Shown: in pieces, positions 1 to 50,648 of the stretch
Position numbering within the stretch: the stretch's first letter is position 1
Layout of the letters: every line of letters starts with the position of its first letter
Source: an uncultured Methanomicrobiaceae archaeon
GTDB taxonomy: Archaea > Halobacteriota > Methanomicrobia > Methanomicrobiales > Methanoculleaceae
DNA length: 64,000 bases
Reading direction: 5' to 3'
NCBI GenBank assembly: GCA_963826525.1
Contig: CAWGXH010000004.1
Location: 928,001 to 992,000, forward strand
Translations under genes and position numbers: made by a program
The notes under the pieces: model-generated
The model's database searches: none
What the model saw: the letters and a program-made list of their open reading frames with translations, nothing else
Told to the model about the DNA's origin: nothing

Positions 1-50
1 GCGAGCAGACAGATGACGAGTGTCAGTTGGAATCTGGATAAGCCTGTCAT
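1..50 (-). CDS. 5' fragment of a gene running off the window edge; N-terminus MTGLSRFQLTLVICLL looks like a signal peptide or TM segment
   Basis: ATG at 50 (minus) preceded by GGTGA RBS, a TTTTTAAG TATA-like box (~95-102) and an NrpR-like operator. Confidence 0.55.
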   Translation of the reverse strand, partial: MTGLSRFQLTLVICLL

Positions 51-72
51 TGTAATCACCTGCTACGCAGGT

Positions 73-90
73 AGAAGGATGTTTCCTTCC
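73..90. promoter_or_regulatory. NrpR-like nitrogen operator, two overlapping 1-mismatch copies of GGAA-N6-TTCC
   Basis: AGAA-ggatgt-TTCC (73-86) and GGAT-gtttcc-TTCC (77-90), just downstream of a minus-strand TATA box, beside the glutamate synthase/glnA cluster. Confidence 0.55.
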
Positions 91-177
91 AACACTTAAA
101 AATATTTCTATTTATTGCGGCGTATGCACTACCGACTGGGATTGTGGGCGATCATAAAAAATGTTACGGGAGATATC

Positions 178-1195
178 TTAGGGTTTTCTCGCGGCTTTCT
201 GTCCGGCGAGTCGTTCGATGATTTTTGTGTTGATCTCATTTCCGGTGGCGAGCCTGCCATGCCGGACTGCGCTATCGATAAATCCGCGGCCGGTGTCGTT
301 CCTGACAATCAGGGTGGTGAACCCTTCCGGTGAACCGATGGCTCCTGCCGAGATATCCGCATCGACGGCGGTAAGGTCGGTACAGACGTGACATCCCGGC
401 CGTACGCACGCTTCCAGTTCCTCGAGAGGAATTGAGGTGGTCGAACCGTCCTGCAGGAGAATCTCGAGTTTTCCCTTGACGTTAAGACGCCGGATCTGCC
501 AGGGCTCAATCTGATGCTCCTGCCGGAGTTTTCCTTCCATCAACTTTGCATAATCGAAGGTCTCCGTGCAGAAGAGGCCGATGACAAGGCGTATCGACTT
601 GCCGAAGGGCCTCGAGCAGATCGTGCTCACTCTCGCGTAGCGCCTTCGTCGCCCGCACCACGCAGGGGACGCCCACAACAGCGATCCTCCGGCACTTCCG
701 GTTGATCACCGCCTCCTTCAGCGAGGCCAGAAGCGGCACCCACCAGGAGTAACGGCTGCCGGCGTAATGAATGAGGGCGTCCGAAGAGGTAATGACAGCC
801 GACGAAGGCCTGAGTGTCCAGCGGTCCTCCGTAACCGTAACCACGGCATCGATAAGCCCTTCCTCGAGGGCGTTTGTCAGGATGGCGGTCACTGCGCCGC
901 CGCTCTGCTTCCTCTCCACATCAAAGGTCGACTGTGCCGCAACGATCTCGGTGTACGAACCGAGCAGCGTCTCCGGCCGGAAGGGGGCGGTGCGAGGACA
1001 GACTTCGTAGCAGGCGCCGCAGGGGACACCGTCAGTCGCCGCCTTGCAGTATCCGGCGTTGACGGGGGCAAGGGTACTTCCTGCCGGAAAGTAGATTGCG
1101 TCCGCCGGGCAGACTGCCACGCAGGCGCCGCACCCGGAACAGGTTCCCTTCAACCAGACCTCCGCCTCAAGGTCCTTGAATGTCTTCTTCTCCAT
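178..1195 (-). CDS. FrhB/FdhB-like F420-interacting subunit with N-terminal ferredoxin motifs; likely F420-dependent glutamate synthase subunit (frameshift ~613)
   Basis: CSGCGACVAVCP, QSGGAVTAIL, VGVPC, IGLFCTETF, GCHVCTD..ADISAG; ORFs 506-1195 and 178-678 join after removing one base. Confidence 0.85.
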
Positions 1196-38034: not shown

Positions 38035-38863
38035 TCAGGCCGGGGGTCTTCCTGCAGCCAGAACGCTGTCCACGACCAAACCGTTCTGCACGGTGACCTG
38101 CACCGTCGCCTGGTCCGTTGCCACCGGATCTTTCATCGACCGCATCGAGAACCGGTAGGTGTAGCGGTGGAATCGGGATATGACCCTTCTGCGGCCCATA
38201 GGAGGGTGAGATTCTCACCGCCGTAGTCGCGGTATTCTGTCAGGTTGGTCATGTACGACTTCGCCACGTTCCGGCTCGCGGAGTCCACTCCGAAGTTGAT
38301 CCCGATGGTCTCTGCAAGCGAACCGATCCAGAAGGTATTCAGCGTGCCGTTCGTGAGGATACCCCGGCAGACGTACTCCAAGGTGTTCGTGCCATGGAGG
38401 AGGATGGTGCCGGAGAGTTCTCCCCCCCCTGTTCGTGGAGCACGAAGAGCGCCTCGGTCAGGTTCGGGACGGTTCCGGATCCGTTCCAGGGTTGCCCGAA
38501 CCGGAGTTCGACGACCGTCCCGCGGTGCCGAATCCCGGCGATACGGTCGTCCGTCACCCGGTAGTCGATCGCTGCATCGGCCTGCCGGAGGATCATGTAG
38601 AGTTCGTCTGTGCCGTTCCACCCCGGAAATATTCCGTCTCCGTCAAGGTACCAACCGTTGCCTTTGTGCCTGATAATGATGGTCTCGTTCGTCCCGCCCG
38701 CGATGTTGATCTGCGAGAGTTCGATCGGTCTTCCCCACTGCTGGAACGTCACTATATCGGTGCGGGTTTCTCCTGTAAATTTGACCGGGAGCCCGTCTGC
38801 CGCGAGTCCGCGCCGGGGTCTGGGTGCCCCGGGAGGAGCTCCTACAACCGTGTCCTCTCCCAT
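38035..38863 (-). CDS. Hypothetical, probably extracellular protein (frameshifts in C-run ~38425 and ~38170)
   Basis: ORFs 38339-38863 and 38133-38621 join; Thr/Gly/Asn-rich with several N-x-T/S sequons. Confidence 0.5.
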
Positions 38864-39099: not shown

Positions 39100-39876
39100 A
39101 TGACTTCCGGACTGACCGCATTCATCGATATGGAGTTTGGCCATGTCTACGGCACCTGCCGCAACCTGCTTATGCCGGTGGAGCTTGGTATGGTGCTCTA
39201 CGATCCTGCCTCCAATACCCCCCGTTTTGCCGGCAGGAAATTTTCTTACGATATCGACGTCGAACTCTGGAAGAATGTCACCGACGAGCGGGGAGCTACG
39301 CTCGGTGTCACGGCAACGGTCGCGAACCTCGGCCGGAATGAGTATCAGAAACCCTTCCTGCGGAGCCACAGGCTCTCTGCCCGCCGCATCCGGGACGCCG
39401 AGGTGGTCTGCAGCGAAGCTTTCTCCGACCTTCGATGCACTATGGAAGACCTCTGCACCGGAGACGATATCGAAACCCTGGTTTTTTTCGCGGAAGGAAT
39501 GGAGGTGAAGGCCTTCGCCCGCGCCGGTTTCTCTCTTGACACATTCGGGCGGATCGACCTGCAGAAGGCGGTCATGCGACAGCTGCAGATGAACGATCAG
39601 CTCTCGCTCGATAAAGTCGCGAAGATAATCGGTTTCTGCGCCGTGCATACGGAGATCGCATCGATGCACTTCTCGTACCGGGTACCACGAAGACTTCGCC
39701 ACTTCATCAAGCCTCACCGTGCTCTCGGTGACGCCGCCCGGATATTTCTCCTCTCCCGCGAGCTTGCAGAGGCGGGGAGCGCGTTCGAGTCGCGGGCGCA
39801 TGCTTTCCTCGAGCAGTACGAACTCCTGTCGGCAGGACGGAGCGTGCCCGCGGCTGCCGGGCGTGCGGCTACCTGA
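39100..39876 (+). CDS. Putative DEDDh (DnaQ-like) 3'-5' exonuclease, paralog A
   Basis: ExoI FIDMEF + PVELGMV, IDLQK, ExoIII PHRALGDA. Confidence 0.7.
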   Translation: MTSGLTAFIDMEFGHVYGTCRNLLMPVELGMVLYDPASNTPRFAGRKFSYDIDVELWKNVTDERGATLGVTATVANLGRNEYQKPFLRSHRLSARRIRDAEVVCSEAFSDLRCTMEDLCTGDDIETLVFFAEGMEVKAFARAGFSLDTFGRIDLQKAVMRQLQMNDQLSLDKVAKIIGFCAVHTEIASMHFSYRVPRRLRHFIKPHRALGDAARIFLLSRELAEAGSAFESRAHAFLEQYELLSAGRSVPAAAGRAAT

Positions 39877-39936
39877 TGCAATCTGCCCGGGGTCGGGTAA
39901 AGATTTATACGGCGCTGCACCGATGGTGGCGCCATT

Positions 39937-41301
39937 ATGGAATGGGAGTATGATCTGGTTGTCATCGGGACGGGCACTGCAGGGACCGATATTGCCGTCC
40001 ATTGCAGGAAAGTCGGCAAAAGCGTCGCCATCGCCGATTATCGGGAGTTCGGGGGGACATGTGCACTCCGGGGATGCATTCCGAAGAAAGTACTCGGTGC
40101 TGCCGCCGAGGTCGTTGCCCGTGCAGGCGACCTGCACGGAAAGGGCGTCATCGGCAAGATAGCGATCGATTGGCCTGCCCTTGTTACGTTCGAGCATTCC
40201 TTCACCGATCCTGTCCCTGTGAACAAGGAGGAATCGTTCAGGAAGCTCGGGATCGATACCTATCACGGGTATGCACGGTTTACCGGCGAGCAGACGATCG
40301 AGGTCGGCGGCGAAACCCTGCGGGCACAGCAGATCGTCGTCGCGACCGGCTCCAAACCGCGACCGTTGCAGATCCCTGGTGCCGACCTCATGACTACCAG
40401 CGACGAGTTTCTCTACCTCGAACGTCTCCCGAAACGTATTGTCTTTATCGGGGGCGGCTACATCTCGTTTGAGTTCGCCCACGTTGCTGTCCGGGCAGGG
40501 GCTGAAGTGACGATTCTCCAGCGGAACGCCAGGGTGCTCAAACAGTTCGACGCCGATCTCGTCAATAGGCTGGTAACAGCCTCGGACGAGGCGGGAATCG
40601 ATGTCCGGACGAATATGCCGATTACATCGATCGAGAAGGCACCCGGTGGCCTCATCGTGCGGGCAGGGCCGGAAGGCAGGCATCTCTTCGAGGCGGATAT
40701 GGTGGTGCACGGTGTCGGCAGAGTCCCTGCAATCGACGGCCTCGATCTTGCTAAAGGCAACATCGCGACGGATAAAAAAGGCATTGCTGTCAATGAGTAT
40801 CTTCAGAGTGTATCGAACCCGGCTGTCTACATCGCCGGGGACGCCAATTACCAGAGCATCCAGCTGACACCCGTCGCCACGCTCGACGCCCATGTCGCCA
40901 TAGACAATATTCTGAACGGGAACCGAAAGAAAGCAGACTACTCAATGATTCCGAGCGCGATATTCAGTGTCCCGTCTCTCGCCGCCGTCGGCCTCTCGGA
41001 AGAGACGGCGAAGAGAAAGGGCATCGAGTACGATCTTCACTCCGGGGATATGTCCTCGTGGTACGCCTCCCGGAGGATCGGCCTTCGTCACGCCGCCTAT
41101 AAACTCCTGCTCGAAAAAGAGACCGGGCGCATCCTCGGCGCCCACATTCTCGGGGACAATGCCGGCGAGATCATCAACCTCTTCGCTCTCGCGATCCGGC
41201 ACAATATGACGGCGGCCGACCTGACCTACGACGCGATGATCTATGCTTACCCGACGAGCACCTACGAGATCACCTACATGGTCAAAGGAAAAGGCAGGTA
41301 G
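39937..41301 (+). CDS. Class I pyridine nucleotide-disulfide oxidoreductase (glutathione reductase-like)
   Basis: VIGTGTAG, GGTCALRGCIPKK, IGGGYI, AGDA, C-terminal AYPT. Confidence 0.9.
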   Translation: MEWEYDLVVIGTGTAGTDIAVHCRKVGKSVAIADYREFGGTCALRGCIPKKVLGAAAEVVARAGDLHGKGVIGKIAIDWPALVTFEHSFTDPVPVNKEESFRKLGIDTYHGYARFTGEQTIEVGGETLRAQQIVVATGSKPRPLQIPGADLMTTSDEFLYLERLPKRIVFIGGGYISFEFAHVAVRAGAEVTILQRNARVLKQFDADLVNRLVTASDEAGIDVRTNMPITSIEKAPGGLIVRAGPEGRHLFEADMVVHGVGRVPAIDGLDLAKGNIATDKKGIAVNEYLQSVSNPAVYIAGDANYQSIQLTPVATLDAHVAIDNILNGNRKKADYSMIPSAIFSVPSLAAVGLSEETAKRKGIEYDLHSGDMSSWYASRRIGLRHAAYKLLLEKETGRILGAHILGDNAGEIINLFALAIRHNMTAADLTYDAMIYAYPTSTYEITYMVKGKGR

Positions 41302-41308
41302 CCGGCCA

Positions 41309-41692
41309 TTAGCCTTCCGCCGCCTCTTTCTTTTGCTGCTTCTCCGGCTTGACGTAGGTGATAGGATGGCACTCGACCTCCCTTACCGTCACCGGAGCAG
41401 TATATCCGCTCTCCATGACGAGACACTTTACCGGGCATGCCTCGACACAGGCATCGCAGGCGATGCAGCGGAGGCGATCAATCTCCCAGACCTTCTCCGC
41501 CCGCTCTACCCGTATCGCCTGGGACGGGCACCGCCGCATGCAGAGGCCGCAGGAGATGCACCGTGCGGGGTCGATCGTCACGTGCCCTCGCGTTATCGGG
41601 CCGACACGTGCCGGAGTTGTGGGGTACCGCCGGGTGGGCGGCCTTCCGAAGAGGTTTTTCAGGACGGTCTTTGCCATCGTGAAGAATCCCAT
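41309..41692 (-). CDS. echF: Ech hydrogenase ferredoxin subunit F
   Basis: [12 protein letters not shown] and [12 protein letters not shown]; operon context. Confidence 0.9.
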
Positions 41693-41699
41693 TACCCGA

Positions 41700-42779
41700 T
41701 CACCTCTCCGTGCAGCTGATGCACGGGTCGATCGAGAGGACGATCACCGGGACGTCGGCGAGCTGACACCCGGGGAGCATCTTCACCAGTGCCGGGAGGT
41801 TCGTCAGCGTGGGTGTCCGGATGCGGGCGCGGGTCAGGTGCTTCGTGCCGTTGCCTCTGAGGTATTGGACGACCTCTCCCCGCGGCTGCTCGACCCGCGA
41901 GAAGTACTCCCCGTCGGGCGCACCGGTCACTTTCACCTCAATCGGTCCCTCCGGGATTCCCTCCGCGGCCTGCCGGATCAGGTCGATTGAGGTGAAGAGC
42001 TCCCCGACCCTGACCGCACACCGGGCGTAGCAGTCGCCCGCAGTCTCGGTCACCGGCTTGAAATCAAGGTCTCCGTAGGCAGCGTAGCCGAGCTCCCGGG
42101 TATCGATGGAGACGCCGCTCCCCCGGAGCGTCGGGCCCGCGGCACCAAGGTCGTATGCCTCGTCTTTTGTAATGATCCCGAGTCCCTGAAGGCGGTTTTT
42201 GACCGATCCGTCGTTGAGGAAGACGTCGCCGAGATCGCGGCATTGCTGCTCGAACGGGGCGAGTGATCGGAGTATCTCGTCGAGCTTCTCCCTGCCGATA
42301 TCCCGGCGGACCCCGCCGACTTTGCAGGTCCCCTGGATCACGCGCCCGCCGGAGGTATCCTCGAGCACGTCGAGCACGCTCTCGCGGAGCCGCCAGGACT
42401 GCATGAAGAGGCTCTCGAAACCCATGGCATCGGCGAAGAGCCCGAGCCAGAGGAGATGCGAGTGGAGCCGCGAGCACTCGGACCAGATCGTCCGCAGGTA
42501 CCGTGCCCGCTCCGGCACCTCGACAGCCATGATCGTCTCGATCCCCTGCACGTACGCAAGGCCGTGCATGAAACTGCAGATCCCGCAGATCCGCTCTGCA
42601 ACGTGGACGAATTCGGTATACTCCCGCTTCGTCACGAGCTGTTCGAGACCCCGGTGGATGTAGCCGATGGAGGGGATGACGTCTACGACCGTCTCGTCCT
42701 CAAGAACCAGGTCGAGGTGGATGGGCTCCGGGAGCACCGGATGCTGCGGCCCGAAGGGCACCACTATGCGTTCCGGCAT
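41700..42779 (-). CDS. echE: Ech hydrogenase [NiFe] large subunit E
   Basis: GPQHP, HRGLE, ERICGIC, C-terminal DPCISCTER without extension. Confidence 0.95.
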
Positions 42780-43147
42780 GGCCCTTCCCCCTTGCGGGTG
42801 ACGCTGAACGGCTGCTTCTGTGCAGTCCGGATCATCGTTCCCTGAAAGTCGATGTTCATCCCGGTCACCGGGATCCCGAAGAGATCGTGCATCTCGTTCT
42901 CAAAGACGAACGCTCCCCAGTAGATCCCGGAGATGCTCGGAACCTCCGTATCCGGGGCGACGGTCACCCGCAGGTTCAGGAACTGGTATTCCCTGTCGAA
43001 CGAGTAGTTGATCTCGTAGGCCTCTTCGAGGGCGGTGCACCCGATCTGGACGAGCCGGTAGCCGTCCTCATGCAGCCTCCGGGCGCTCTCCAGGAGATCG
43101 CCGAGCGGTATCTCCCGTATCGTCTGTTCTTCTGCAGTCATGGTCAA
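42764..43147 (-). CDS. echD: Ech hydrogenase subunit D
   Basis: NuoC-like, VPSIS, FENEMHDLFGI. Confidence 0.9.
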   Translation of the reverse strand: MTMTAEEQTIREIPLGDLLESARRLHEDGYRLVQIGCTALEEAYEINYSFDREYQFLNLRVTVAPDTEVPSISGIYWGAFVFENEMHDLFGIPVTGMNIDFQGTMIRTAQKQPFSVTRKGEGPCRNA

Positions 43148-43620
43148 CTCCCTGCTTCTGCTCCTATTCTTGCCTCTTCTTTCGCACGTGTCCGATCTTC
43201 CATCGTCCGGCGTTTTTCTTCGAGAATGCCGGTCGCCGTCACGATCCCGTCGATGATCGACTCCGGCCGCGCGGCACAGCCCGGGACATAGACATCCACC
43301 GGTATAACCTTATCGACGCCTCCGACGATATTGTAGCATTCCCGGAATATCCCTCCGGAGGTCGCACAGATCCCGACGGCTACCACCACCTTCGGCTCGG
43401 GCATCTGCTCGTAGATGTTCCTGACGACCTCCCTGTTCAGCTCGTTGATCCCGCCGGTGATCACCAGGATATCGGCGTGTTTCGGGTTTCCGGTGTTGAT
43501 GATTCCGAACCGCTCCACATCGTAGAGCGGTGTCAAGCAGGCCAGCACCTCGATGTCGCAGCCGTTGCAGCTCGAGGCATCGTAGTGCAGGAGCCAGGGT
43601 GATCGCTTCAGGAACGCCAT
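43144..43620 (-). CDS. echC: Ech hydrogenase small subunit C
   Basis: SCNGCDIE, GICATSGG, YVPGCAARPE. Confidence 0.95.
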   Translation of the reverse strand: MAFLKRSPWLLHYDASSCNGCDIEVLACLTPLYDVERFGIINTGNPKHADILVITGGINELNREVVRNIYEQMPEPKVVVAVGICATSGGIFRECYNIVGGVDKVIPVDVYVPGCAARPESIIDGIVTATGILEEKRRTMEDRTRAKEEARIGAEAGS

Positions 43621-43625
43621 CGTCG

Positions 43626-44487
43626 TCACACTCCTCCCATGATATATGCAATGATAACCAGGTTCGCAAAGCCAAGGATCGCCGCCGCCCCCCACCCACT
43701 CTGGAGCGCCGACTGCCACCGCAGCCGGGCGGTGGTGTTGTCGATGAAGATCTCCGCGAAGTAGGTGATTGCGACCGCCACTATCCCGAGCACCGGGTTG
43801 AACCCAAAGAATAGGTAGATGAATCCGAGGAGAAAGATGTTTTCATACCAGTGGGCGATCTCGATCTGGCCGAGAGTTGCGCCGGAGAACTCGGTCGTTA
43901 TCCCCTTGACGATCTCCTGGTGCGCATGGTGCGAGGTCGAGATGTCGAAGGGTGATTTTCGCAGTTTAATCGTCAGGACGGTGAGAAACCCGAGGAAGAC
44001 GCCCGGAAGGTAGAGGATGATCGGAACCGTCGATGAGGCGATATCTGCCTGAGTAGAAACTCCCGGTGACCATGTAGAGACCGACCGCTGCGAGGATGAT
44101 CATCGGTTCGTAGGCCATGATCTGGATCAGCTCCCGCTCTGCCCCGATATGGCTGTAAGGCGAGTGGACTGAGTAGGCGCCGAGCACCAGGAAGACGTGG
44201 GCGAGCGTGAAGGCGAAGATGACGAGCAGCAGATCTCCGCCCGCAAAGAAGAGCGCTCCCGATACGACGATGAAGGTGAGGTAGGCGAGAACGTAGAAGT
44301 TCTGCGCTGTGGTGACCACGACGTTCTCCTTCTCGAAGAGTTTGCCGACGTCGTAGAAGGGCTGTAGCAGCGGCGGCCCGACCCTGCCCTGCATCCGGGC
44401 AGTGAGGATGCGGTCTATCCCGGCGACGAGCCCGCCGAAAAGGGGCGCGAGGAGAATGAAGAGAAGGGCACCGAGCAGTCCGTTCAT
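43626..44487 (-). CDS. echB: Ech hydrogenase membrane subunit B (frameshift ~44045)
   Basis: ARMQGRVGPP..QPFYD, YEP, KSPFD..HQEIVKG..EFSG (NuoH-like) across two frames. Confidence 0.92.
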
Positions 44488-46385
44488 GCCGCCACCCCCA
44501 CGAGCAGCCAGGATGCCAGAATAAACACAGTGCAGAGCGCCGTTCCGACCGGAAGCAGCCGGTCTTCGCCGAAGTAGCCGATCAGGTAATAGTTCCTCGT
44601 CGTCATCTCCCGTGCGACCCCCATCGAGCCCAGAAATCGCATATCCGGGGTGGTTGTTCTCCCGCTCATATAGGGGGGAAGGCGTTTCGCGCTCTGCCGG
44701 AAGAGCAGGAAGGAGACGGGCAGGATAAGGAGCAGGAAGAGCATCAGTGCCATGATGGCGATATTAGCCTGCGAAAGGCGTGCCGTTGTGCCGTAGATCG
44801 AAAAGACATAGGGTTCTATCAGCACCGATGAGATGAGTGGGAAGAGAAAGACCGTGGCTGCCACGAGCGCGGTGAGCACGTACAGCGGAGCCCACCGCTC
44901 CTGCCTGAAACTCTTCTCGACCTTTGTGCGGTACCGGGTGACCGCCACAAGCTTGCCCATCCACTTCGCCCAGAAGAAGACCGTGACCGCACCGCCGTAC
45001 GCGAGGATGGCGACGAATATGAGGCCATAGGGTGCCTGCACGAACCCTTCGATGGCCGCCCACTTGGAGATGAGCATTCCGAAGGGTGCGAGGAACATCC
45101 CGGCGATCCCAATGAACATCATCACTGCCATCTTCGGCATCCGGACGATCAGTCCCTCCATATCCTCGATGTCCCTGCTGTGGATCCGGTGTTCGACGGT
45201 GCCGACGCAGAGGAAGAGGAGCGACTTCGAGATGGCGTGGAAGATGATCAGCAGGATCGCCGCCCAGACGAGCATGGGCGTTCCCACCCCGGCGCAGGCG
45301 GCGATCAGTCCGAGGTTTGCGACGGTCGAGTAGGCTAAGACGGATTTTGCGTCGCTCTGCGAGATCGCTATCGCAGATGCGACGAGGAACGTCACGGCAC
45401 CGACCATCCCGATCGAGACTCCGGCCAGCGTCCCGGCGTAGACCGGGGCGAACCGCACCAGGATGTAGACTCCTGCCTTCACCATCGTGCTTGAGTGGAG
45501 GAGGGCGGAGACCGGTGTCGGGGCGACCATCGCCCCGAGGAGCCAGGTGGAGAAGGGCATCAGCGCCGCTTTGGTTATCCCGGCAAACCCGATCAGGACG
45601 GCAGGAAGGATGGCTATCGCCTCCCCGGAGGCGAGGAGTTGGTCGAGCTCGAGGATATGGCCGGCCGGATCAATCGCCGCAAGATAGATCAGGGCGGCAG
45701 CGAATGCGATACCGCCGAGCAGGTTCATATTAAGCGCCCGAAAGGCGTTCCGTGTCGCTTCCGTCGTCTCCGAGTACCCGATCAGTAGGAAGGAGCTGAT
45801 GGTGGTCACCTCCCAGAAGAAGAATATCCACTGGAGGTTGTTTGAGAATATCAGGCCGAACATGGCGGCGAGGAAGACGAAGATGACGAAGAAGAAGAAC
45901 CGCTGCCGGTCACGCACCTCCGGGTGCTCGCTATGGTAGGTTTCCATGTAGCGGAGAGCGTACACTGCGATGAGGCTGCCGATGATCCCGATGATCAGAG
46001 CCATGATGACGGAGAACTGGTCGATGAAGAGATTGTTCACCGGGTGGAGGCCTTCTGCATACAGGAGCTCGAACGAGACGATCAGGGCGGTCTGTACCGT
46101 GATGAGTGCGATCGCCAGATAGTTCCTGAACCGGAGACCGAGGTAGGCGATATAGGCCGCTAGGCCCAGTTCGACGATCACCATGATCCGGCTCACCGGC
46201 TCCGACGGGACGGCAAAGAGTATCAGATCCTGCATTCCGTAGACGGCGAGCAGGAGAACTGAGGCGGCGCCGATTACCACGGCAGCGGCGGTGACCAACG
46301 CGAACCGGATCTTTTTCCGGTTCGCGAGCAGCATCCCGACGGCGATGACAGCGGGAAAGAGTATCAGAAACAGCAGTGTCTCCAC
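44484..46385 (-). CDS. echA: Ech hydrogenase antiporter-like membrane subunit A
   Basis: FFWEVTT, AMVAPTPVSALLHSSTMVKAGVY, HAISKSLLFL (NuoL-like). Confidence 0.95.
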   Translation of the reverse strand: METLLFLILFPAVIAVGMLLANRKKIRFALVTAAAVVIGAASVLLLAVYGMQDLILFAVPSEPVSRIMVIVELGLAAYIAYLGLRFRNYLAIALITVQTALIVSFELLYAEGLHPVNNLFIDQFSVIMALIIGIIGSLIAVYALRYMETYHSEHPEVRDRQRFFFFVIFVFLAAMFGLIFSNNLQWIFFFWEVTTISSFLLIGYSETTEATRNAFRALNMNLLGGIAFAAALIYLAAIDPAGHILELDQLLASGEAIAILPAVLIGFAGITKAALMPFSTWLLGAMVAPTPVSALLHSSTMVKAGVYILVRFAPVYAGTLAGVSIGMVGAVTFLVASAIAISQSDAKSVLAYSTVANLGLIAACAGVGTPMLVWAAILLIIFHAISKSLLFLCVGTVEHRIHSRDIEDMEGLIVRMPKMAVMMFIGIAGMFLAPFGMLISKWAAIEGFVQAPYGLIFVAILAYGGAVTVFFWAKWMGKLVAVTRYRTKVEKSFRQERWAPLYVLTALVAATVFLFPLISSVLIEPYVFSIYGTTARLSQANIAIMALMLFLLLILPVSFLLFRQSAKRLPPYMSGRTTTPDMRFLGSMGVAREMTTRNYYLIGYFGEDRLLPVGTALCTVFILASWLLVGVAA

Positions 46386-46469
46386 AAAAGCCCCTCGAAT
46401 GGTTACTATACCTGATCTACATTATTAATCATTCTAAATTGTGCGGTGGGTCAGGGCTGCCTGTCCGTC

Positions 46470-46829
46470 TCAGGCCCGCTCTTTTACGTTCCTGACTCCG
46501 CCGCCCGGGTGGCGTGAATCGCCCCGGTAGCGCGGGATGAAGTGGACGTGGACGTGCATAACTCCCTGCCCGGCCACCTCGCCGATATTGACGCCGATAT
46601 TGTAGCCATCGGGGTGGTGTTCGCGGTCGACGATCGCTTTGCAGTCCTCGGCGAGCCGTGCGAGCGCCAGCCGTTCCGCATCGGTCGTCTCAAAAGCGCT
46701 GGCTACGTGCCGGAAGGGGATGAGGAGGAGGTGTCCGGGGTTCACCGGGTGGATGTCGTAGCGGGCGTAAGCGAGATCGTTCTTCGCCACGATGACCGCC
46801 GGGTCGGGGTTGCAGAAGGGGCATGCCAT
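46470..46829 (-). CDS. HIT family nucleotide hydrolase
   Basis: CPFC, PGHLL, GYNIGVN, HVHVHFIPR. Confidence 0.93.
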   Translation of the reverse strand: MACPFCNPDPAVIVAKNDLAYARYDIHPVNPGHLLLIPFRHVASAFETTDAERLALARLAEDCKAIVDREHHPDGYNIGVNIGEVAGQGVMHVHVHFIPRYRGDSRHPGGGVRNVKERA

Positions 46830-46877
46830 GCTCCCCACTCCTCACCGATCCGATATGAGCCTTTCCGCACGTCCCCC

Positions 46878-48056
46878 TCACCCGAGCAGCCCGGCGATCA
46901 GCCTCCCGATCCTGCTCCGCTCAAGCGCGATCGCCTCATTCGTGCACATCTCGTGGCAGCAGTAGCAGCGAATGCACCGTGTGAGATCGATGACCGCCTT
47001 TCCGTTCTGCACTGTTATGGCTCCCATCGGGCAGATCCGCTCGCACTTTCTGCAGCTGGTGCACGACGCTGCTATGACCTTCGGTGAGAGGGCATAGGCC
47101 GCGCCGAACCGCTGGACGACGGCGAGGAGCGCCCGCCGCCAGATCCCGGTTCTGCCCCCGGTATAGGTGGATGGCTTTTTGAAGTCGGGCACTGCTATCT
47201 CGTCCGGCGGGACACCCCGCGTCACGACGCCGGCAAAGTCAGGGTCGACGAGTCCGCGGTTTACGGCGGCCCGGATCGACCCGATCTCCAGCGGGTCGTA
47301 CCCGATGAGGCGGGCGAGCACCACGTCCATGGCCGTATAACTACCGCTCGCGAGGACGGCGCCGATCTTTCGTGGCGTCCCCGACTGCGGCCCATCGCCC
47401 TCCATCCCTACGATCGCATCCATGATCTGGAGGCGGGGCTTCATCAGCTCGTTGAGGTCGACGAGCATCCTTCCGAACTCCGCTTCGTCCCTGAACCGGA
47501 AGTGGAAGGCGGGTTTTTCAAAGCCTGGTATCAGGCCGAAGAGGTTCTTCGTCGCCCCGCTCATCCGCGTCCACATATGCGTCTTCGCCTTCGAGACGAC
47601 CACAATCGCATCGGCTTTGAGTGCCGGGGTGATGATCGAAAAGCGCTTCATCACCTCGGCGTCAGGAAAAGGAACTTCCCGGTGGCCGGGGTCGAGGTTG
47701 ACGTCAATCCCGAGTTCTTCGGCGACCGCAGCGAATCCGGAGGCGGTATATGCCCGGCGAAGGTTCCCTTCGGAGTAGACGATCCCGGCTCCCGGGCTGT
47801 CGGCGATCACCACCCGGCAGCCGTGTTCGGTGAGGAGCTCTGCGACGGCGAAGACCACCTCGGGATGGGTGGTGACGCACCGTCCGGGGTCGGATCCCTG
47901 CAGCATATTCGGCTTCAAAAGGACGGTCTCGCCCGGCGAGACGAAGGCGTTCATCCCGCCGAGAAATTCGACCGCTTCCCTGACCGCCTTCCTGACCTCT
48001 TCACGGCGGTATCCGTCGCAGCGGACGATGGATACCGGTATCTCAGCTGCTGCCAT
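46878..48056 (-). CDS. DUF362 domain Fe-S protein with C-terminal ferredoxin
   Basis: LLKPN, TTHP, KTH, KNLFG, GMEGDGP, CTSCRKCERICP / CIRCYCCHEMC. Confidence 0.9.
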   Translation of the reverse strand: MAAAEIPVSIVRCDGYRREEVRKAVREAVEFLGGMNAFVSPGETVLLKPNMLQGSDPGRCVTTHPEVVFAVAELLTEHGCRVVIADSPGAGIVYSEGNLRRAYTASGFAAVAEELGIDVNLDPGHREVPFPDAEVMKRFSIITPALKADAIVVVSKAKTHMWTRMSGATKNLFGLIPGFEKPAFHFRFRDEAEFGRMLVDLNELMKPRLQIMDAIVGMEGDGPQSGTPRKIGAVLASGSYTAMDVVLARLIGYDPLEIGSIRAAVNRGLVDPDFAGVVTRGVPPDEIAVPDFKKPSTYTGGRTGIWRRALLAVVQRFGAAYALSPKVIAASCTSCRKCERICPMGAITVQNGKAVIDLTRCIRCYCCHEMCTNEAIALERSRIGRLIAGLLG

Positions 48057-48084
48057 GCTCGCTTCCTGTAGGGTGCCGCAGTTC

Positions 48085-48867
48085 TTATCCTCTCCCCTCG
48101 CCGAGCCGGGTGAGGGCATCCTCTGCAGCAAGCATGGCGGCACCCTGCTTGGTGCTGTCGGTTCCCTCGCCCCATGCCTGCTTTCCGAGCAGTACCCGTG
48201 CAGTCCAGGTGGCGGCTTTATCAGGCCCTGTCTGTCGGTACTCATACTCGACGTTCCCGAGTTTCCGCCGGCCCGCGAGCTCCTGAAGTCTTCCTTTATA
48301 GTTCTGCGAGAGATCGAACCGCTCGATCTCCTCCGAAAAGATCGCAAGGATGATCGTCCGCACCGCCTCCATGCCGCGGTCGAGGTAGATAGCGCCGAGA
48401 AGTGCCTCGAATGCGTCGGCGATGACGGCGTCGGTGAGAACCTGGCCCCGCCGCCGTAGCGCTCCGTCGATTCCGAGATTCCGGGAGAGGGCGATATCTG
48501 CCAGATTATCGTTCCCGGTCACCTGAAGCCGTTTGTTCAACTCGCCGGGAGGGAGGTTGTAGTGGGTGTACAGGTAATCGGCAACGACGAAGTCGAGGAC
48601 GTAATTGCCGAGAAATTCGAGCCGTTCGTTGTCTCCGGAGGCGGAGAGCCGGTACCGTGTCCCTTCAACGTAAGATCGGTGCGTTAACGCCCGGTCGTAG
48701 AGCAGAAGCGCTTCTGCATCTACTATCTCGAGATTGAACGGCGGTGCGCTGAGGAGCCACCGGAGCTCCGCCTCGCGGTCGGGAGCCGGCGGGAGGGGTC
48801 TCTCTTCGCGGTGCCGTTGCAGAAAGGAGGGGATCCTCAGTCTGATCGGGAATGCAGGGAACTTCAT
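48085..48867 (-). CDS. rnc: Ribonuclease III with C-terminal dsRBD
   Basis: ALTHRSY, NERLEFLGN, ADAFEALLGAIYLD, NYKGRLQE, KQGAAMLAA. Confidence 0.92.
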   Translation of the reverse strand: MKFPAFPIRLRIPSFLQRHREERPLPPAPDREAELRWLLSAPPFNLEIVDAEALLLYDRALTHRSYVEGTRYRLSASGDNERLEFLGNYVLDFVVADYLYTHYNLPPGELNKRLQVTGNDNLADIALSRNLGIDGALRRRGQVLTDAVIADAFEALLGAIYLDRGMEAVRTIILAIFSEEIERFDLSQNYKGRLQELAGRRKLGNVEYEYRQTGPDKAATWTARVLLGKQAWGEGTDSTKQGAAMLAAEDALTRLGEGRG

Positions 48868-48982
48868 AGGTGGAAGTGTTGATGAATGTCCGCGTTGCGC
48901 CAACTTATAACCGCCCCTCCCTTCCGGAGGGGAAGGCTCTTCACCCCCGCGGGTATACAGACGCCCCGGGAAGCGGGGTGGT

Positions 48983-49813
48983 ATGGTCGATATCTGGACG
49001 GTGCTCGTGGTGGTCGTTGTCATCATACTGGTTTTGCCGGTTTTTCTGCGTTTCGTCACTCGGACCCGTCGTATCAGGATGATCCGGACGATCGAAGAGA
49101 TGCGGGCAACACGGGTGATCACCCTGATCCACCGGCAGGAGCGCGTGACGTTCCTCGGCATCCCCCTCGTCCGCTACATCGACATCACCGACGCCGAAGA
49201 TCTTCTGCGGGCTATCCGGCTCACTCCGGCAACCATGCCGATCGATCTGGTCGTCCACACGCCGGGCGGCCTCGTTCTCCCGGCAGAGCAGATTGCAATG
49301 GCGCTCAAACGGCACTCCGCCCCTGTCACGGCCTTTGTCCCCCACTATGCGATGTCCGGGGGGACGCTGCTCTGCCTTGCAGCTTCCCGGGTGGTGATGG
49401 ATGAAAACGCCGTCCTCGGACCGGTCGATCCGATCGTAGGACGATATCCTGCGGCGTCGATCCTGCACGCAGCCCGCGTAAAAGATGTCAACGAGGTCGA
49501 CGACGAGACGCTCATCCTTGCGGATATCGCCGGAAAAGCCCGAAATCAGATGCAGGAGTTCGTCCGCGCTATGCTCGCCGGGACAGTGGATGCAGAGATT
49601 GGGGCGCGGATAGCCGATGCCCTGACCGGCGGGGTGTGGACGCACGACTATCCGATAACCTGCCGCGAGGCCGCCGGGATAGGGCTCCCGGTCTCCTGCG
49701 GAATGCCGGAGGAGATACACCGGCTAATGGAACTCTTCCCGCAGGCGATGCCGGGGCGCCCTGCGGTCGAGTATATCCCGGTGCCGTACTGGAAGAAGGG
49801 AGAGCGGCGATAG
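48983..49813 (+). CDS. Membrane-anchored SDH-family ClpP-fold serine protease
   Basis: N-terminal TM, IHRQE, HTPGG, PHYAMSGGT, LGPVDP, WTHDYPI. Confidence 0.9.
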   Translation: MVDIWTVLVVVVVIILVLPVFLRFVTRTRRIRMIRTIEEMRATRVITLIHRQERVTFLGIPLVRYIDITDAEDLLRAIRLTPATMPIDLVVHTPGGLVLPAEQIAMALKRHSAPVTAFVPHYAMSGGTLLCLAASRVVMDENAVLGPVDPIVGRYPAASILHAARVKDVNEVDDETLILADIAGKARNQMQEFVRAMLAGTVDAEIGARIADALTGGVWTHDYPITCREAAGIGLPVSCGMPEEIHRLMELFPQAMPGRPAVEYIPVPYWKKGERR

Positions 49814-49895
49814 GTCACTCTATCCGGGGAACTCTGGCGGAATCTTTTACCCGTACGAGGCCTCAAACTATGTATCCCGCTGCCGGGGAGGTGCG

Positions 49896-50648
49896 ATGAT
49901 ATCCGGTGATACTGCATACCTGGATCTCGAGTTCGGATACGTTTACGGGACGGCGCGAGCCGTGATCATGCCGATCGAGATCGGCGTGGTCGTCCACCGC
50001 CGCGAGGACGACTCCGTCAGGTATGCGGGAGACGTGTTCCGCTACGACATCGACGTCGAGATCTGGAAGAAGGTCGCCGACGACTGCGGGCGCACCGTCG
50101 GCGTCTCGACGTCGGTCGCGAACACCGGCGAGGGTGTCTACGGGAAACCCTACGACCACTATTTCCGCCTCGCCGGAGAAGGCGTTTCCTCATCTCAGAC
50201 GTTCTCCCGAGCGGCGTTTGCGGATCTGCGCACTTTTATGAATAACCTCCTCACGAACGGGGAGGTTTCGACGCTGGTCGTCTTTGCGGCTGATATGGAG
50301 AAGATGGCGTTTCGCGAGGCTGATATCCTAACTGAGAGTTACACACTCGTCGATCTCCAGCGGGAGATCAAGCGGCATATGTCGCTGCGCGATCTCCTCT
50401 CGCTCGATAGGGCGTCCCGTCTCGTCGACTTCCGAGCAGACAACGGCGTTATCGCCTCAGCGCATTTCGAGTACCCGATCCCGGCCGCGTTCCAGGGCTG
50501 CCTGCAACCCCACCGGGGGATGGGCGATGCCGCACGGATATTTCTCCTTGCACGGGAGTTCTTCGACCGGCGGGAGGCTTTTACAAAGAGAATAGAAGCG
50601 CTCACCCGGGTATGCGCGGCGCCCCGCGAGCCGGAGAGCGGCAGGTGA
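49896..50648 (+). CDS. Putative DEDDh (DnaQ-like) 3'-5' exonuclease, paralog B
   Basis: ExoI YLDLEF + PIEIGVV, VDLQR, ExoIII PHRGMGDA; aligns end to end with 39100-39876. Confidence 0.7.
   Translation: MISGDTAYLDLEFGYVYGTARAVIMPIEIGVVVHRREDDSVRYAGDVFRYDIDVEIWKKVADDCGRTVGVSTSVANTGEGVYGKPYDHYFRLAGEGVSSSQTFSRAAFADLRTFMNNLLTNGEVSTLVVFAADMEKMAFREADILTESYTLVDLQREIKRHMSLRDLLSLDRASRLVDFRADNGVIASAHFEYPIPAAFQGCLQPHRGMGDAARIFLLAREFFDRREAFTKRIEALTRVCAAPREPESGR

Follow-up and report, generated by a model that had tools for sequence, protein, structure and literature searches.

The question raised by this locus is what kind of protein is encoded by two similar 'hypothetical' genes, and on what substrate it would act. 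The genes, here called A and B, lie in the same orientation within a stretch of 64,000 nucleotides (the window) from an uncultured Methanomicrobiaceae archaeon, contig CAWGXH010000004.1, positions 928,001 to 992,000. A preliminary description had seen in both products the motifs of DEDDh nucleases with an atypical acid at the second site, ExoII. Predicted structures and conserved residues make it probable that A and B are active metal-dependent 3'-5' exonucleases of the DEDDh type. The features on which this reading is built are listed below, where counts refer to a 34-row alignment of the core family (A1); a wider alignment (A2) includes members with 20-30% identity as well.

39100 to 39876, + strand: paralog A, open reading frame of 258 amino acids, candidate DEDDh-fold (DEEDh signature) 3'-5' exonuclease
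39127 to 39135, + strand: ExoI of A, D10-x-E12, on predicted strand beta1 (residues 5-16); D in 31 of 31 covering rows and E in 34 of 34 rows of A1
39241 to 39375, + strand: residues 48-92 of A, a beta-meander according to the secondary structure of the model, with the motif DIDVE.WK...G...V.N
39502 to 39504, + strand: E135 of A, putative ExoII acid, in the first turn of helix 133-142 after beta4 (124-129)
39715 to 39732, + strand: ExoIII of A, H206-x4-D211; H and D each in 34 of 34 rows of A1
49896 to 50648, + strand: paralog B, open reading frame of 250 amino acids, predicted fold as in A, with the five residues D10, E12, E135, H206 and D211
49923 to 49931, + strand: ExoI of B, D10-x-E12, from the ungapped alignment to A; signature DEEHD
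50298 to 50300, + strand: E135 of B, putative ExoII acid, from the ungapped alignment to A; helix 132-141 after strand 124-129
50511 to 50528, + strand: ExoIII of B, H206-x4-D211, from the ungapped alignment to A; signature DEEHD

The two open reading frames were found exactly where the preliminary description had placed them, and every pair of motifs that it quoted from A and B is present in the translations. By BLASTP the proteins share 100 identities over 236 positions (42%, with 63% positives and 0 gaps) at E = 7e-71, and the similarity fades only over the final 15-20 residues. Since this is far beyond chance, A and B are true paralogs. A Shine-Dalgarno-like GGAG lies just 5' of both start codons. 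Both are real genes under purifying selection: the ratio of nonsynonymous to synonymous substitution rates (dN/dS) against the orthologues of two sister genomes was 0.15-0.17 for A and 0.17-0.26 for B, compared with 0.13 for the adjacent oxidoreductase gene. No copies of the family besides A and B were found in their own genome, which is 87.6% complete.

AlphaFold2 models built with family alignments had a predicted local distance difference test score (pLDDT) of 90.1 and a predicted template modelling score (pTM) of 0.86 for A, and of 92.0 and 0.89 for B, with virtually identical secondary structure. The models were compared with 48,161 PDB representatives by VIA, a structural comparison independent of Foldseek. 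The leading matches, with root-mean-square deviation (rmsd) and aligned residues for two of them, were as follows.

ExoX: A, Z 13.3, rmsd 3.3 Å, 150 aligned; B, Z 11.7
DinG exonuclease domain: A, Z 12.6; B, Z 12.0
Pol III epsilon: A, Z 12.6, rmsd 3.2 Å, 155 aligned; B, Z 12.3
ExoI: A, Z 12.3; B, Z 10.5
3'hExo: A, Z 12.3; B, Z 11.4

Lower matches for A were PolC-exo, QIP, TREX1, ERI2, Cap18, Cas2-DEDDh, ISG20, RNase T and REXO2, and the best 40 rows for A (Z >= 9.8) contained nothing but DEDD exonuclease domains and known degenerate versions of them. About 150-170 of the 250-258 residues align to known structures in this comparison. Foldseek against the PDB returned the DnaQ domain 8h2f as best match (E = 3.8e-4, prob 1.00), and against the viral models of BFVD it matched DEDDh exonucleases of phages and giant viruses. 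A and B are thus confidently predicted to adopt the DnaQ-like (RNase H-like alpha/beta) exonuclease fold. As regards the fold, the comparison with DEDDh structures that had been proposed as a check came out in favour of the nuclease reading for both proteins, and because AlphaFold2, VIA and Foldseek agree, the absence of a DnaQ-like fold can be set aside as an objection.

In A1 no variation is seen at E12, E28, D153, Q155, D171, H206, D211 and R214. The range that VIA aligns is the same for A and B, residues 5..224 of the model against 7..180 of epsilon, and D10, E12 and H206 fall on positions 12, 14 and 162. In the models these three residues are in register with Asp12, Glu14 and His162 of Pol III epsilon; a 2026 preprint, referring to structure 1J53, names Asp12 and Glu14 on beta1 as catalytic and His162 as the general base. 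ExoI D-x-E and ExoIII H-x4-D, whose signatures the preliminary description had seen, are invariant in every row of A1 that covers them. Its assignment of Glu as the ExoII acid in both copies agrees with the column of E135, which reads E in 33 rows and D in 1 row of A1. The same column of A2 holds E in 13 rows and D in 21, and is acidic in every row; Glu is typical of the methanogen core, and Asp of the distant relatives. Thirteen rows of A2 read D-E-E-H-D at the five positions, while 15 rows outside the deep branch described below have Asp at ExoII, namely 13 with D-E-D-H-D, one with Asn first and one truncated at the N-terminus. In DEDD enzymes the ExoII Asp is found where the helix that follows beta4 begins. 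E135 occupies this place in the predicted structures and is taken as the putative ExoII acid, so that the five residues would cluster in one three-dimensional site.

In the mechanism that we propose, two Mg2+ or Mn2+ ions would be held by D10 and E12 on beta1, by E135 at the beginning of the helix that follows beta4, and by D211; H206 would be the general base that activates water, and the 3'-terminal nucleotide would leave as a 5'-monophosphate. With Glu in place of the usual Asp at ExoII, the signature becomes DEEDh. Six members of a deep branch in A2 (P0082, P0083, P0086, P0088, P0091 and P0093) depart from it: they read E-K-D-x-D at the five columns and have N for D171, while D153, Q155, D211 and R214 are retained. 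Joint loss of the ExoI Glu, the ExoIII His and D171 is what would be expected if one functional site had decayed as a unit, and the branch is probably a catalytically dead lineage.

The conserved segment that had been seen to replace the usual one runs through the whole family. In the model of A it adds three predicted beta-strands (53-61, 67-76 and 81-84) at a place that is partly helical in canonical members. Four of its residues, D51, E55, W57 and N76, hardly vary within the core family, and even distant members have a recognisable form of the motif. This three-stranded beta-meander (approximately residues 48-92), standing in place of the segment after beta3, would probably shape the choice of substrate. 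In both models ExoIII is preceded by a further small sheet (178-196) and followed by an additional C-terminal helix.

Pol III epsilon, ExoX, RNase T, the DinG exonuclease domain and ExoI, all of PF00929, have the fold in common with A and B (Z 12-13, about 150-160 residues aligned). They also share the ExoI D-x-E on beta1, an E-x-G on beta2, the ExoIII H-x4-D, and the motifs D-(L/T) and S-L-D between ExoII and ExoIII. Unlike them, A and B have Glu for Asp at ExoII, F-A for H-N before it, the meander of about 45 residues for the helical segment after beta3, the small sheet before ExoIII, and the extra C-terminal helix. According to PMC7654266, coronavirus nsp14 is likewise a DEEDh enzyme, the position alternates between E and D among nidoviruses, and the variant E191D has near-wild-type activity. 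The nidovirus nsp14 ExoN thus resembles the family of A and B in using Glu as motif II acid and in the E/D alternation, and is matched by VIA with Z 9.5 (A) and 9.0 (B). Its zinc fingers, nsp10 cofactor and fused N7-methyltransferase have no equivalent in A and B, and no sequence relationship was detected between them; the common Glu is better interpreted as convergence inside one superfamily than as evidence of kinship.

Two further groups are close in other respects. Rv2179c-like exoribonucleases (PF16473) are the nearest clusters with a Pfam name in language-model space (score 0.93), and their structure 4hec, a small stand-alone DEDDh protein as A and B are, gives Z 10.1 with A and 9.4 with B. 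The language-model features in common with A and B amount to 157-164 of 256, fewer than the 170 typical of the same family. As 4hec has 155 residues, of which 129-137 were aligned, it holds no counterpart of the segment of about 45 residues. The RNA 3'-end trimmers 3'hExo/ERI-1 and ERI2 give the largest aligned cores (165-169 residues, Z 10.8-12.3). In contrast to them, A and B are devoid of a SAP domain, have 10-14% identity with them, and show no relationship that was detected at the sequence level.

Searches with A and B in Pfam and NCBIfam gave no match at E <= 10. This includes PF00929 (RNase_T), with a gathering cut-off of 24 bits, and the hidden Markov model of PF16473. PDB sequences, searched by phmmer and by the family profile, contained nothing relevant to either protein. 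Distant members gave only sub-threshold hits in a library scan, to DEDDh_C (0.093) and RNase_H_2 (0.023-0.07). Comparison of the family alignments A1, A2 and A5 by hhalign with 16 canonical PF00929 open reading frames of the same order gave a weak local match (E = 0.012-0.038), in which ExoI, the E-x-G motif of beta2 and ExoIII are paired with the canonical motifs (E = 0.012). Language-model neighbours bearing Pfam names belonged to Rv2179c-like and RNase_T clusters. Since the sequence-model tests for PF00929 and PF16473 failed, the family of A and B is considered as separate, a new sequence family within the known DEDDh structural superfamily, with no new mechanism or system. It is small and rare: 45 proteins were found at E <= 1e-3 among 5.8 billion clusters, and 54 clusters among 1.84 billion representatives, full-length members having about 240-280 amino acids and no precomputed Pfam domain. 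The closest named orthologues, from Methanoculleus taiwanensis (88% identical to A) and Methanoculleus sp. FWC-SCC1 (B-type), are labelled hypothetical by NCBI. The subfamily had been called uncharacterised, and this stands in so far as curated models are blank and a literature search, by topic and by the accessions of these two orthologues, surfaced no description of the family; UniProt, however, auto-names the M. taiwanensis orthologue 'Exonuclease'.

Distribution was assessed in 201 evenly sampled genomes of the order, which represent 40 genera. The gene was found in 63 genomes and in 6 genera, being near-constant in some genera (35/37, 12/12 and 5/5) and never present in others. Two full-length copies occur in seven of the 63 positive genomes, six with A and B and one with B and a third, long-branch type, so the claim that the gene is kept in duplicate is true for this genus and a few relatives but not for the family at large. 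The third type (L010, G095:C2:368015-368764) resembles P0035 and P0025 from Methanoculleus metagenome-assembled genomes (MAGs), sits at a locus distinct from A and B, and was found in some genomes of the neighbouring genus. A maximum-likelihood tree of 37 rows (LG+C20) recovered the A clade with support 100/97 and the B clade with 100/99, each dividing into the same two genera; the tree did not resolve how these clades and the next genus branch (81/70). Since each clade mirrors the genus split, the duplication is older than the divergence of the two closest genera, and most genomes of the larger genus have since lost A. By the tree, A and B appear to be vertically inherited. In-frame stops were noticed inside some genome matches; two of these (L017 and L020) were checked and are both intact reads of 242 residues, and the apparent stops look like overrun of the alignment beyond the stop codon.

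A search of genome contigs with alignment A4 found one locus, in a Candidatus Parabeggiatoa MAG, and metagenome contigs gave four loci; Bacteroidota clusters were among the language-model neighbours. These clusters and the MAG locus suggest that the distant relatives are bacterial, so that the term methanogen subfamily fits the core of the family but not its distant relatives. Two distant members have additions of their own. P0065 (444 amino acids) ends in a cold-shock domain at residues 353-403 (PADLOC CSD_V 3.1e-5, Pfam CSD 0.046), and P0061 has a Cys-rich, zinc-ribbon-like tail.

The pair was described as bracketing an oxidoreductase-ech-HIT-DUF362-rnc block, and Pfam identifies these genes between A and B.

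39937 to 41301, + strand: Pyr_redox_2, pyridine-nucleotide disulphide oxidoreductase
41309 to 46385, - strand: echF/E/D/C/B/A, six ech hydrogenase genes
46470 to 46838, - strand: HIT protein
46878 to about 48050, - strand: DUF362+Fer4, a DUF362/ferredoxin protein
48085 to 48750, - strand: rnc, RNase III; conservation in tblastn covers just about 217-220 amino acids
48983 to 49813, + strand: SDH-type ClpP-like serine protease (PF01972, E = 1e-105)

A MoeA gene sits beyond B. The mechanical open reading frame of rnc (48085-49161, -, 358 amino acids) is over-extended at its 5' end and overlaps the protease gene on the opposite strand; the true start is probably near 48750 and not at 49161. That of DUF362 (46878-48347, -, 489 amino acids) is also 5' over-extended, about 372-390 amino acids being conserved among relatives. 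The protease gene between rnc and B is confined to the genus of the window, and in the neighbouring genus no gene lies between the divergent rnc and B. The gene echB (43719-44487, -) is frameshifted near 44047-44063, with its N-terminal 147 codons and C-terminal 120 or so codons in different frames; both halves share one frame in 8 related genomes, and either the split is due to an error of assembly, or the gene for this essential Ech subunit has become a pseudogene. Upstream of A and divergent from it lies a conserved hypothetical gene (38339-38863, -) of 174 amino acids and no Pfam family, with 70% identity in the sister genome and 41% in the next genome.

The order MoeA-B-rnc-DUF362-HIT-echA-F-Pyr_redox-A is kept in every two-copy genome examined (G110, G166, G052 and G118). 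In the taxonomic family of the window, genomes with a single copy have B flanked by rnc and MoeA, and by comparison of coordinates a B-type gene lies within 1.6 kb of rnc, divergently, in 36 of the 38 positive genomes of that family. The loci examined in other genera (g8, g17 and g23) had no shared neighbour and none of the partners of the ech block, and a bacterial relative on a metagenome contig stands alone, with no shared partner. The proposed survey of neighbourhoods and phylogenetic profile has therefore shown a block conserved in the family of the window and not beyond.

In two sister genomes of genus g17 (L034 7336-10193; L035 10894-12759) the exonuclease gene follows DUF362 and an N6_N4 DNA methylase, and one of the two also has a fragment of a BsaWI-like restriction enzyme; the arrangement is missing in four other g17 genomes. 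Three candidate associations were rejected. Linkage to DUF362 holds in only two of six g17 genomes, which are sisters in the tree. A phyletic link to RNase III was dropped, PF14622 being present in 190 of the 201 genomes. Displacement of canonical PF00929 proteins by the new family was not upheld either: PF00929 occurs in 51 of the 201 genomes, together with the family in some (for example G166, G118, G119 and G139) and not in others. With neighbours not kept outside the family of the window, RNase III near-universal and DUF362 adjacent in this minority, context is at most a weak hint of function.

For the substrate we lean tentatively, and not quite as far as an even call, towards trimming of RNA 3' ends or clearance of short oligoribonucleotides, weakly favoured over the processing of DNA ends. 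The lean comes from the order being without exosome and reliant on RNase R, from RNase III as conserved divergent neighbour of B, and from the one distant member with a cold-shock domain; the Rv2179c-like and RNase_T clusters among the language-model neighbours point the same way. In PMC7144898 the Methanomicrobiales are described as lacking the exosome and using aRNase R. In the genome of the window, at the completeness given above, no RNase_PH gene was detected, and one RNB (RNase R/II-type) gene was found outside the window (L040, G000:C4:449995-450990, -, E = 8e-77), which fits this published state. A six-frame search of the same genome for PF00929 at E <= 1 found none, while 12 of 14 control genomes were matched. 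A more ambitious version, which we regard as quite unlikely, would make the family the missing partner of aRNase R in exosome-less Methanomicrobiales. It would trim 3' ends precisely or act as a nanoRNase, with the beta-meander reading a particular RNA end. In the lineage with two copies A and B would then be subfunctionalised, for example for different RNA classes or as a heterodimer, and a divergent promoter common to B and RNase III would couple their expression for the maturation of stable RNA.

Several points weigh against the reading of A and B as active exonucleases with a preference for RNA. Neither protein is recognised by any curated sequence model. The best hhalign match to PF00929 is weak (E = 0.012, probability 3.6%), global alignment failed, and the placement of ExoII was unstable, sliding by about 4 residues, or about one helical turn, between runs. 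Because profile alignments are weak and shift at ExoII, E135 is assigned from its conservation and from the predicted secondary structure. That the scaffold can persist without catalysis is shown by the deep branch, which appears to be inactive. The preference for RNA is weak, since the closest structural neighbours mix DNA and RNA enzymes; gene context indicates no pathway outside one taxonomic family; and RNase III, being near-universal in the order, carries no phyletic signal. The mixture of neighbours bears directly on the possibility that A and B are enzymes of the same class acting on DNA, as 3'-end processing or repair exonucleases like ExoX, TREX or epsilon, which we hold to be somewhat unlikely. 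The top structural matches are DNA enzymes (ExoX, the DinG exonuclease domain, Pol III epsilon and ExoI), and RNA decay is already provided for in the genome by an RNase R-type gene. Yet the Z scores of RNA enzymes (3'hExo, QIP, ERI2 and RNase T) differ from these by about 1 unit at most, so that a ranking by fold cannot tell the two kinds apart, and no repair or replication gene is among the conserved neighbours of the loci examined. Archaeal replicative polymerases, moreover, have proofreading domains of their own.

The deep branch, in which the ExoI Glu and ExoIII His are lost, also bears on whether A, B or both could be inert nucleic-acid-binding pseudo-exonucleases, like Exuperantia, ESRP1 or the exo-like domain of polymerase alpha. 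Degenerate DEDD domains are among the structural matches and Glu is non-canonical at ExoII, but A and B retain all five positions (DEEHD), which are invariant in the core family, and in nsp14 Glu at motif II goes together with full activity; we find this reading distinctly improbable. It is also improbable that A and B are functionally tied to the bracketed genes (ech, HIT, DUF362, RNase III), for example as processing factors of the locus or partners of DUF362. The conserved arrangement of the two-copy genomes speaks for such a tie, as does the gene directly downstream of DUF362 in two genomes of another family. These neighbours are nevertheless absent from the loci in g8, g17 and g23, the DUF362 adjacency is that of two sister genomes out of six in g17, most g2 genomes retain the ech block with the B copy only, and the bacterial relative stands alone. 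Least of all do we expect nucleases of a defence system or mobile element, although the DEDDh nucleases of CBASS, the cyclic-oligonucleotide-based anti-phage signalling system (Cap18), and of CRISPR adaptation (Cas2-DEDDh) are among the structural matches and the methylase/restriction pair lies nearby in two g17 genomes. A, B and three relatives (P0033, P0035 and P0045) matched 0 families of PADLOC-DB 2.0 at E <= 1 and none of PHROGs, and two queries (A4 and A1) found no relative in 2.9 million viral contigs. The synteny is stable, the tree mirrors the genus split, and the composition profile has no obvious anomaly around A or B. Active DEDDh-type exonucleases thus remain the probable identity of both proteins.

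The practical value of these results lies in annotation, as a family model can be built from the alignments A1 and A5, and in a defined set of residues. A family that is hypothetical to NCBI and uncovered by Pfam and NCBIfam is given a functional class based on its predicted fold. The Glu/Asp alternation at exonuclease motif II, hitherto discussed mainly for nidovirus nsp14, receives a cellular example. The Methanomicrobiales, an archaeal order in which the processing of RNA 3' ends is poorly mapped beyond RNase R, gain a candidate 3'-5' exonuclease.

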